This document shows positions 53,901-56,900 of a DNA stretch of 64,000 nt, one piece after another. The stretch is from Escherichia coli O157:H7. GTDB taxonomy: Bacteria > Pseudomonadota > Gammaproteobacteria > Enterobacterales > Enterobacteriaceae. Made by a program: the position numbers. The stretch lies in NCBI RefSeq assembly GCF_013167455.1, contig NZ_CP038328.1. One strand, given 5' to 3'. The number at the start of each line of letters is the position of its first letter. Position 1 is the first letter of the stretch.

Positions 53901-56900
53901 GCGATGTAGATCGTTCAGGCTGTAACGCCCATAAACATCACGACGAACTTCAATACCATCAATGACCATCAGATTATTCATACTTCGTTTCTCCTCTTGA
54001 TCAGGCGGCTGCACCCGCCGTTTTCTCGTACTTACTGATAGTGATCTCGACCTTCCCTTTCGGGATAACCGGTCCCACTCCACCAGCATTCTTTTCACCT
54101 GACTGTCGTCTTCCCACACACCCGCGTGGGTCAGGGCGTCAAACAGCGCCTTGTTATAGTTGTCCAGATCGCGGATCCTGTTATCCGGAGGAAACAACAC
54201 GATCTCCACTGAAGCAGGTGCCGACGTTGGTTTCGGCAGACGACGTAACTGCTCAATGATGGCGGCACACGCCGCGCTCTGAAATTTTCGCCCCGCCTCG
54301 CTTATCAGGCTCTTACCAGCAAATGCCCCTTTGTTGGGGTGTCGCCAGTACGTGTTCACGCTGGGCGGGAAAGGCAGGATCAGCTTCATACTTTCAGGCC
54401 CCTCTGATGTAACCAGTGGGTTGCACGCAGCCTGGCGTTTTCCTCACCGGCAAGCAGTGAGCGGATAATCCCGACCGCCTCGCTGTCGTCGTCCTTCACC
54501 GCGGTATGAAGCGTGATGCCCCGGGCCACGCCACGCTTTATCGTGATGACACCTTTTTTCTCCAGTGCGCGAAGATGCTCCACCGCTGCATTCACTGAAC
54601 GGTATCCCAGCATGATTGCCACCTCCTGATTGGTTGGCGGGAAGCCACGTTCTTTCTGATAAGAAATCAGCATATCCAGCACCTGCTGCTGGCATTGAGT
54701 TAACGTCGTCATGCCGCCATCTCCCTGACCAGTTTTTCCGCCTGCTGGCGAACCTGCGCCAGAAACGCCTCACCACATGCCTCAAGTTCATCGCGCCCGA
54801 TGTAGCTGATTGCCGGTCCCTTCCAGGTCTTATCGAAAACAGCAATAGCACCAGCGAAGAAAGCGCCTGTCGGCACCTGCTTCTCATCCTTCGGGATAAA
54901 CCAGGCAGGCAGTTCAAAACCAATACGCCCGCGAATAAAAGCAATATGGTCCGCATCTTCCGGCCACCACACTTCGCTGGTGGCAGCTTTGATCAGGAAA
55001 ACATAGCGCCCACCCTTATCACGCATGGCACTGGCATGTTTCATGATGTAACGCATGCCGGTGATGTATTGCCCCTCATGCTGACTGGCGCGGCTGTATG
55101 GGGGATTACCAAAGGCAGCCCCTTTAAGCTCCGCAAGACGTTCTGACCAGTCATGCGCCAGCGCGTTGTCTTCCGCCGTGTAATACGCAGCACATTTGGC
55201 GTTATCACCGTCAGTGAACAGATCCAGAACAAACGGGCCAAACAGGGTGTTAATTCCCCAGAAAATGTTGTCCGGCGTGCGCCACTGATCACCCACTTCC
55301 TTCAGTTCATGGGCTGGTTTGTTCCGCAGTTCCACCAGCTCCTGGCAATATTTATTACTCATTAAGCCCCCACGTAATTCCCTGACAGATACCACTCATC
55401 ACCCGATACAGCGCGCTTGCTGCTTTTCCGTAAACACTGCTCACGACGCGCCAGAAAATTGTTTCGTTCTGGCTGGGAGTGGCTTTCACGGAATGCCGCC
55501 ATCCACACCGTTGCAGCACGACGGTATAAGCCCCTGGACTCCAGTTCTTCCGCCTGGCGGGTCAGGCACAAAATCACCCGGGGATCGTTAGTGCCGACAT
55601 AGAAATTGCGCACAGGTCTGGTTTCACGAACTGGTTGTGGTTCCGGCTCCTGCGCTCTCTCAGTCAGGCGTGGGAAATGTCTGCGTGTATCTCCTTCACA
55701 ACGGTGAGCCACACGCCCACTCTGACGTAACTTGCTTGCTGACTGCAGAACGCGCTGCCGTGAGTAACCTGCAAAAGCATCCGCAATGTCTCCGGAAGTA
55801 CACCCCGGATGGGCTTCAATGAATTTCTGAACTTCATTCAAAAGACTCATGATCACCCCCTGAATCCTGCCGGGATCTGGCTGTAGTCCACGTTGTCGTA
55901 ACTGGCTTTGAAGTACGGGTCCTCGCGTCTGGCTGCAGATACCGCAGGAACTTCCCAGGATTCTTCGAAATGACGATCCGGACCAAAGAACGTGACAGCC
56001 TGTTTCACAAATTGTGTGCCGCTGTTACCCATCGCAGATACCCAGCCCGCGTAGCGTTTCACACCTTCCAGCATGGTTTCGGGGTTTACCCCCTCATTCA
56101 AACGGGCTTTCCAGGCTTTGAAGGCTGCAGATTTTGAATTGCCACCAGCACGTTTGGGATATGCCAGCCATGCCTGCTCAAACTCCGGAGAGTATTCCGG
56201 TCGGTTTGAACGAACTCGCACGGACTCATCAACTGATGCACCAACAGCTATTGGTTCATTGACTGGTTCTTTGACTGGTTCAAAAGAGTGACTGGTTCTG
56301 GGTGAATCTCCTGCACTACCCCCTGGTGCAACTCCTGCACTACCTGGTGAATTTGCTGCGCCAGATAGTGAATTATTTGCACTACCCCCTAGTGAATCTC
56401 CTGCACCATCCAGATGAAGGAGATAGATATTACTTGAGTTACCTTTTTCACCTTTCCGGGTGACTTTTTTTACCAGCCCGGACTCACAAAGGGCCGCAAT
56501 ATGATTCATCACAGAACGTTTGCTAATCTCGCACTGGTCAGCAATATGCTGGTAGCTGGGCCAGCACTCCCCCTGATCGCTGGCATTATCAGCCAGCTTG
56601 ATCAGAACCAGTTTTCGCAATGGATTACCCACTCGAATTTTCATCGCTTTAACCATCAGCTCCATACTCATGCTGCACCTCCGAGATGCTTCATGTTTTT
56701 TCCGGAGCGAAAGGCTATAAGCGGCATACTGACGCGGTAATTACGGCCCAGCGGTTCACAAATCACCTTCTGACATTCACGGTCAACCAGGCTAACACGT
56801 AGAACATGCCCTGCAGGTGTGGTGTACCACTGACCCGGACGAGGACAACGGAAAGTCTGATTGGTAAACCGTTTGAAAATATTCCGGATCATTTGCGCCC

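Follow-up and report, generated by a model that had tools for sequence, protein, structure and literature searches.

The gene at positions 54709–55362 (minus strand) of a 64,000-nucleotide stretch of Escherichia coli O157:H7 contig NZ_CP038328.1 (the whole of which is called the window here) is, judged from its sequence, a real and intact phage Dam-family (PF05869/TIGR01712) methyltransferase gene, referred to below as dam. It very probably belongs to an SfV-like or CPS-53-like lambdoid prophage and encodes an orphan GATC N6-adenine methyltransferase that is a lytic-phase product, redundant in specificity with host Dam. An earlier note on this DNA had described an NPPY N6-adenine methyltransferase at exactly these coordinates, and that assignment holds on the minus strand, with matches to both family models far above their cut-offs.

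The open reading frame (ORF) consists of 217 codons, starting with an ATG at 55362 and closing with a TGA that ends at 54709. The ATG and the TAA stop of the upstream PerC/YfdN-like gene have one base in common (TAATG), and the TGA overlaps the ATG of the downstream gene for a LexA DNA-binding-domain protein (ATGA). The NPPY motif of the 217-amino-acid product is located at residues 86–89. All ORFs of at least 60 amino acids in the window were scanned for [DNS]PP[YFWH], and the only carriers of real size were the dam ORF (NPPY) and an ORF at 62280–62789 (DPPH); the other four matches are ORFs of 68–91 amino acids that are implausible as genes. Window Dam scored 156 bits against PF05869 (DNA N-6-adenine-methyltransferase, Dam; curated cut-off 28.1 bits) over profile positions 3–167 of 169 and 255.6 bits against TIGR01712 (phage N-6-adenine-methyltransferase; curated cut-off 97.05 bits) over the full profile, positions 1–165 of 165. 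A search of 1.84 billion representative proteins returned 1,525 relatives at E ≤ 0.001. The family alignment comprised 28 sequences with 33–69% identity, and window Dam has the conserved residue in 16 of its 16 invariant columns (D25, W27, T29, D47, N54, N66, A67, P87, P88, Y89, S90, G117, G145, R146, P152, and G197 in window numbering). This set takes in the N-terminal D-x-W-x-T, the D47 strand, and NPPYS at residues 86–90. The AlphaFold model of window Dam has a pLDDT of 94.4, and the protein has the class I S-adenosylmethionine (SAM) methyltransferase fold of the N6-adenine type. The PADLOC Type II methyltransferase model matches it over its full length with 521 bits, and the PADLOC "orphan methyltransferase" model matches it weakly with 38.7 bits.

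The Dam protein of phage SfV (orf-41, AAL89443.1; record U82619.2) has the same 217-amino-acid length and is identical to window Dam at 214 of 217 residues. The three differences (E8A, A153V, and A216V) include none of the family-invariant positions. In the SfV GenBank record the gene is labeled "dam: DNA adenine methylase" and is given promoter signals of its own, and the SfV gene order is that of the window: replication gene, orf40 (PerC-like), dam, orf42 (LexA-like), rusA, and on to Q. A 1.6-kb block containing dam is 97.6–98.3% nucleotide-identical between the window and phages SfV, mEp460, cdtI, and Stx2c. The window differs from SfV in its frameshifted rusA and in having another type of Q gene and of sequence downstream of Q. 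Several DNA methylases are reportedly encoded by SfV, and experiments by Allison et al. (2002) are reported to have identified orf-41 as a functional Dam methylase; a full-text literature search for experiments on SfV dam returned indirect mentions only. The replication module of SfII/SfV is described as including the methylase (PMC3851460).

The methyltransferase of phage T1 is a PF05869 member too (236 bits). It is 25% identical to window Dam over 138 residues, with NPPYS and the N-terminal D-x-W-x-TP aligned. T1 differs in being a virulent phage with different genes around its methyltransferase, and the T1 record cites HP2 Dam as the relative of T1 Dam. The Dam enzymes of T1 and HP1 are orphan and GATC-specific, and T1 Dam has been characterized biochemically. 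GATC is the most likely target predicted for window Dam because of its 99% identity to SfV Dam, reportedly a Dam methylase, and because of these family relatives. No sequence relationship is detectable between window Dam and E. coli Dam, T4 Dam, or DpnM (PF02086, D12 class), and the structurally aligned identity is 8–12%. PF05869 was the sole Pfam match of window Dam, with no match to PF02086, and a phmmer search against all PDB chains gave no methyltransferase match at E ≤ 1. Window Dam would therefore be Dam-like in action and lie outside the EcoDam/T4Dam family.

Window Dam is 100% identical to RefSeq WP_001343335.1 from E. coli CD45. Fifty phage records, mEp460, SfV, cdtI, and Stx2c-converting phages among them, carry the 1.6-kb dam block at 95–99% identity, and it is also present in 2,686 of 5,426 complete E. 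coli genomes. Codon differences in dam are mostly synonymous, with a synonymous:nonsynonymous ratio of 14:3 against SfV and 20:2 against strain 96_1414B, and the protein is therefore under purifying selection. The gene is already described, annotated, and extremely common, and it is an ordinary prophage gene. Public records and curated family models already hold the gene, its family, its position, and its pairing with a second methyltransferase gene.

Some of the records carry another name. RefSeq phage records NC_003444.1, NC_019716.1, and NC_009514.1 call the Dam protein "phosphoadenosine phosphosulfate reductase", and the top PHROG match, phrog_33262, bears the same reductase name, with only profile positions 283–492 of 495 aligned to Dam. 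A true fusion of phosphoadenosine phosphosulfate reductase with Dam is known (P0263, with PF05869 and PF01507), phrog_33262 probably contains such fusions, and the label appears to be a transfer artifact from them. Other fusions were also found. Dam is joined to a C5-cytosine methylase domain in P0246, and public assemblies contain rare PerC-like–Dam products of 380–382 amino acids (for example P0241 and P0012) and rare products of 292–324 amino acids that join Dam to the LexA DNA-binding domain (P0004 and P0020). The clusters of these PerC-like and LexA-domain fusions hold one to three sequences each, compared to 3,007 in the largest unfused cluster (P0021). In the window, one additional G in the GGGGG run four bases 5′ of the stop (55362–55375) would join the PerC frame to dam.

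The lambdoid prophage spans the window from about 18–19 kb to beyond 64 kb. On its minus strand, the order is a PR-like promoter, Cro, a CII-like gene, Ash/Rha, a small ORF, an O-like gene, a PerC/YfdN-like gene, dam, the LexA DNA-binding-domain gene, RusA/KilA-N, DUF968, and Q. The PR-like promoter (TTGACA-18-TACATT, 58887–58916) is located upstream of cro and is the best sigma-70 match on the minus strand in 51500–59200, with 10 of 12 positions matching; it is the likely source of dam transcription. The first gene of the early-right operon encodes a Cro-like repressor (58658–58855; PF14549 P22_Cro, 77 bits). The replication module is marked by an O-like or DnaD-like replication initiator (55853–56671; PF13730 and DnaD_N; phrog_270, replication initiation protein), which is followed by the PerC/YfdN-like regulator (55362–55856; PF06069 PerC; phrog_1324, transcriptional activator). 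The antiterminator Q (51792–52172; PF06530, 173 bits) stands at the end of the operon. The position of dam between the O-like replication gene and Q therefore corresponds to the nin region, in agreement with the earlier placement. A CI-like repressor gene (58951–59604, plus strand; PF01381 and PF00717) encodes a helix-turn-helix (HTH) domain with an S24 peptidase and is divergent from the early-right operon. Beyond it, the plus strand carries an early-left operon with YfdP/Q/R-like genes and then the second methyltransferase gene (62316–62789). The CI-like repressor gene thus separates the two early operons that hold the methyltransferase genes, and from this gene order both genes are probably silent in the lysogen.

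In the proposed mechanism, transcription from the PR-like promoter would reach dam as the third of a series of genes that overlap and are translationally coupled, in the order replication initiator, PerC-like gene, dam, LexA DNA-binding-domain gene, rusA, and on to Q. Loss of the CI-like repressor, by induction or on infection, would lead to synthesis of Dam, and a stable lysogen would not make it. The NPPY catalytic loop would bind the target adenine. The predicted target, GATC, would be shared with host Dam, and the two lineages are unrelated in sequence, which would make the specificity convergent. Convergence on GATC is described for the Dam-like enzymes of gammaproteobacterial phages and for the specificity that bacterial and phage Dam-like enzymes share, and replication modules are where phage enzymes mimicking a host regulatory methyltransferase are located (PMC5537653), a pattern matched by dam beside its replication gene. 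Virion DNA of P22 and lambda is under-methylated by host Dam (PMC8022706). The most likely role of the phage enzyme would be to complete GATC methylation on phage DNA that replicates too fast for the limited host Dam. Progeny DNA would then enter the next host protected from restriction enzymes that cut GATC in a methylation-sensitive manner, and the hemimethylated sites used by host SeqA and MutH would be removed. An anti-restriction or regulatory role, as the earlier note had suggested, is plausible.

Several observations weigh against this interpretation. The prophage contains 113 GATC sites against a simulated mean of 113.8 (third-order Markov model), which does not point to depletion, and a simpler observed/expected ratio from overlapping trimer counts is 0.54 in the prophage versus 0.73 in the host part of the window. 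Neither result fits simply with self-methylation rendering GATC harmless. The sites are also very unevenly spread, with a 6.9-kb stretch free of GATC. The longest gap between GATC sites stayed at or below 4,766 bp in all 200 third-order Markov simulations of the prophage, and no clustering of GATC was seen around the replication gene or the operator region. The prophage carries a frameshifted rusA and may be defective, and a defective prophage might make no use of the enzyme. GANTC rather than GATC is the shown target of phage methyltransferases unrelated to host CcrM (PMC5537653), which possibly lie outside the PF05869 family. The biological role, finally, rests wholly on inference. The GATC-free intervals, at 22990–29881 (6,891 bp) and 19502–22702 (3,200 bp), are in the tail and tail-fiber region, where two GATC sites occur in about 10.4 kb. 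GATC-free prophage regions have been reported earlier (PMC4659465, PMC6602927).

Pfam, PHROG, and PADLOC scans of the genes flanking dam gave no match to a restriction endonuclease. The flanking genes are all assigned to regulator, replication, recombination, or unknown families, and the only PADLOC defense match among them is a weak 21-bit PDC-S22 match in KilA-N. A Type II restriction-modification system has a cognate endonuclease gene beside the methyltransferase, and none was found beside dam. The same scans gave no restriction endonuclease or defense match among the neighbors of the second methyltransferase gene, so the earlier description of both genes as orphans is borne out.

It is extremely unlikely that dam belongs to a cryptic restriction-modification pair in which the DUF968/HNH protein or another neighbor supplies the nuclease. 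The DUF968 gene (52175–53170, minus strand; PF06147, 271.7 bits), a common nin-region gene, lies about 1.5 kb (two genes) downstream of dam, and its product has an HNH-like signature (PF16784, 26.9 bits; phrog_96, "HNH endonuclease"), but neither it nor any other neighbor has a PADLOC restriction or defense match, and DUF968/HNH was ruled out as the cognate nuclease on this basis. A remnant of the DUF968 gene is kept in the related O111 RM9322 prophage that lost dam, and the K-12 Qin prophage has a DUF968 gene and is not known to carry dam. An enzyme that cuts GATC would kill a Dam+ host or serve no purpose in it, and SfIV retains the replication module without the methylase (PMC3851460). It is quite improbable that Dam is expressed in the lysogen and controls host or prophage genes epigenetically, as a form of lysogenic conversion. 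Many E. coli genes and phase-variable loci are regulated by host Dam (PMC4659465), and dam is flanked by two putative regulators, one PerC-like and the other similar to the LexA DNA-binding domain. The SfV record annotates separate dam −35 and −10 elements inside the upstream gene, in a stretch that is 98% conserved in the window, but a consensus scan shows no promoter-like site near dam, and a separate dam promoter was rejected as a candidate on that result. The gene is translationally coupled in an operon downstream of cro. Host Dam already methylates 99.9% of GATC sites (PMC6602927), so that a GATC enzyme would have no further effect in a dam+ host, and the EC958 prophage methyltransferases that were examined were transcriptionally inactive (PMC4659465). 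Prophage Dam homologues are not distinguishable from Dam in published methylomes (PMC6602927). A comparison of the methylomes of a lysogen and a cured strain, which the earlier note had proposed, would neither reveal nor refute Dam because host Dam masks GATC and the gene is probably silent, and failure to detect a prophage-dependent motif would refute nothing about the enzyme.

Methylation of adenine outside GATC, or with relaxed specificity, is decidedly improbable because window Dam is 99% identical to the SfV protein, whose annotation and reported experimental activity are those of a Dam (GATC) methylase. T1 Dam, an enterobacterial-phage relative confirmed in this analysis as a PF05869 member, is likewise GATC-specific. 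A different target would find some support in the small size of the protein, which has no obvious separate target-recognition domain, in the lack of a close solved structure from which to read specificity, and in the GANTC target shown for phage methyltransferases unrelated to the host enzyme (PMC5537653). It is highly unlikely that window Dam is not primarily a DNA enzyme and pairs with a neighboring winged-helix protein to methylate RNA, as M.EcoPA8orf6770P does with PNB-2. The precedent is a prophage "GATC Dam homologue" that, in complex with a winged-helix protein encoded next to it, acts preferentially on 16S rRNA (PMC10810198). Both genes that flank window dam code for HTH-type proteins and are translationally coupled to it, rare alleles fuse PerC or the LexA DNA-binding domain to Dam, and the best Foldseek match of window Dam is an RNA cap adenosine methyltransferase. 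M.EcoGV and M.EcoPA8orf6770P of Stx prophages are also orphan, prophage-borne, annotated as GATC adenine methyltransferases, and encoded beside small HTH proteins (PMC10810198). M.EcoPA8orf6770P is, however, an MT-A70 enzyme with a DPPW motif that requires its partner PNB-2 and prefers 16S rRNA, whereas window Dam has NPPY, belongs to another family, and gave no Pfam match to an MT-A70 domain. M.EcoGV, an MT-A70/DPPW enzyme, was ruled out as a homologue of window Dam. The HTH genes that flank window dam are absent or different in 96_1414B and T1. A related idea, that the PerC/YfdN-like protein or the LexA DNA-binding-domain protein redirects Dam in vivo to particular loci or to another nucleic acid, is very improbable, as is its counterpart that the DPPH enzyme acts not on DNA but on a molecule conserved in all organisms, for example rRNA or tRNA. 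The latter was considered because 45–65% identity is kept among homologues of the DPPH enzyme in phages of several bacterial phyla.

The earlier note had pointed to a second, small methyltransferase-like gene at 62316. A real gene is present there, with a DPPH motif and PADLOC matches, and its product is a putative methyltransferase with DNA as a candidate substrate. The gene (62316–62789, plus strand, early-left operon) encodes a class I SAM-dependent methyltransferase of 157 amino acids; its GTG start at 62316 overlaps the stop of the preceding gene, and the 157-amino-acid product is also the one given by RefSeq, 100% identical to WP_000145671.1. It matches phrog_954 ("DNA methyltransferase") and, over its full length, the PADLOC models MTase_II PDLC03288 (243 bits) and oMTase PDLC03730 (168 bits). 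A Pfam DNA-methylase domain was not found in it, and the NCBI name of the protein is only "class I SAM-dependent methyltransferase". The structure model was weak, the fold search did not discriminate, and the PDB yielded no usable match by sequence. M.EcoGIX ("SAY") was ruled out as its identity because that enzyme is plasmid-borne and single-strand-specific, and no experimental characterization of the second methyltransferase was found.

The occurrence of two methyltransferases in one prophage, also raised in the earlier note, is correct but not unusual, as E. coli CD45 carries the identical annotated pair in the same arrangement. The second gene is present in 944 of 5,426 E. coli genomes. 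The O111 RM9322 copy is 100% identical to that of the window; in that prophage (L005, 4950–7000), an IS1203 insertion removed the region from part of DUF968 up to ymfL, including dam and the replication genes. Homologues with 45–65% identity occur in phages of Streptococcus, Listeria, Staphylococcus, Enterococcus, Corynebacterium, Porphyromonas, Acinetobacter, and Vibrio. This conservation, which spans phages of Firmicutes, Actinobacteria, Bacteroidota, and Proteobacteria, is strikingly high for a small enzyme with no visible target-recognition domain. The very widely conserved second methyltransferase gene is the more interesting of the two. Longer variants of the two unrelated methyltransferase families share a C-terminal module of about 63 amino acids (P0252 in the Dam family and P0129 in the second family; 46% identity, E = 5e-22), and a search of the window found no copy of it.

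The gene downstream of dam (54386–54712, minus strand) encodes a 108-amino-acid protein with only a LexA-type DNA-binding domain (PF01726 LexA_DNA_bind, 67 bits, residues 1–65). The protein matches TIGR00498 at positions 1–91 of 203, and the Pfam scan gave no match to an S24 peptidase domain. Its recognition-helix region, compared by eye, resembles that of E. coli LexA, and the protein could be an uncleavable LexA mimic in lytic growth. The following ORF (53172–54389, minus strand) encodes 405 amino acids in which the RusA resolvase and KilA-N domains are joined through a frameshift. The indel is near 54076, at about rusA codon 105, where a GGGG run is one G short relative to E. coli CD45. The frameshift swaps out the last ~24 residues of RusA and continues into the KilA-N frame; CD45 has two genes here. 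The 1-bp deletion is either prophage decay or a sequencing error.

The host part of the window is E. coli chromosome from the uvrA-dnaB-tyrB region and is 100% identical to strain UTME-1 over 22 kb. A dusA fragment flanks related prophages. An NleG-family type III secretion effector gene (18477–19397, plus strand; PF06416, 161 bits) is located at the tail-fiber end of the prophage. Together with an AraC-family regulator gene near Q it forms the prophage cargo, which suggests a host of the EHEC/EPEC type. Downstream of Q, the minus strand carries three tRNA genes (49667–49918), Arg-tct, Arg-tcg, and a tRNA with a CAT anticodon that is assigned to Met by ARAGORN and to Ile by RefSeq; this Arg/Arg/CAT trio is the usual set in lambdoid prophages of the enterohemorrhagic E. 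coli type. The AraC-family regulator gene (49947–50660, minus strand) lies between Q and the tRNA genes.

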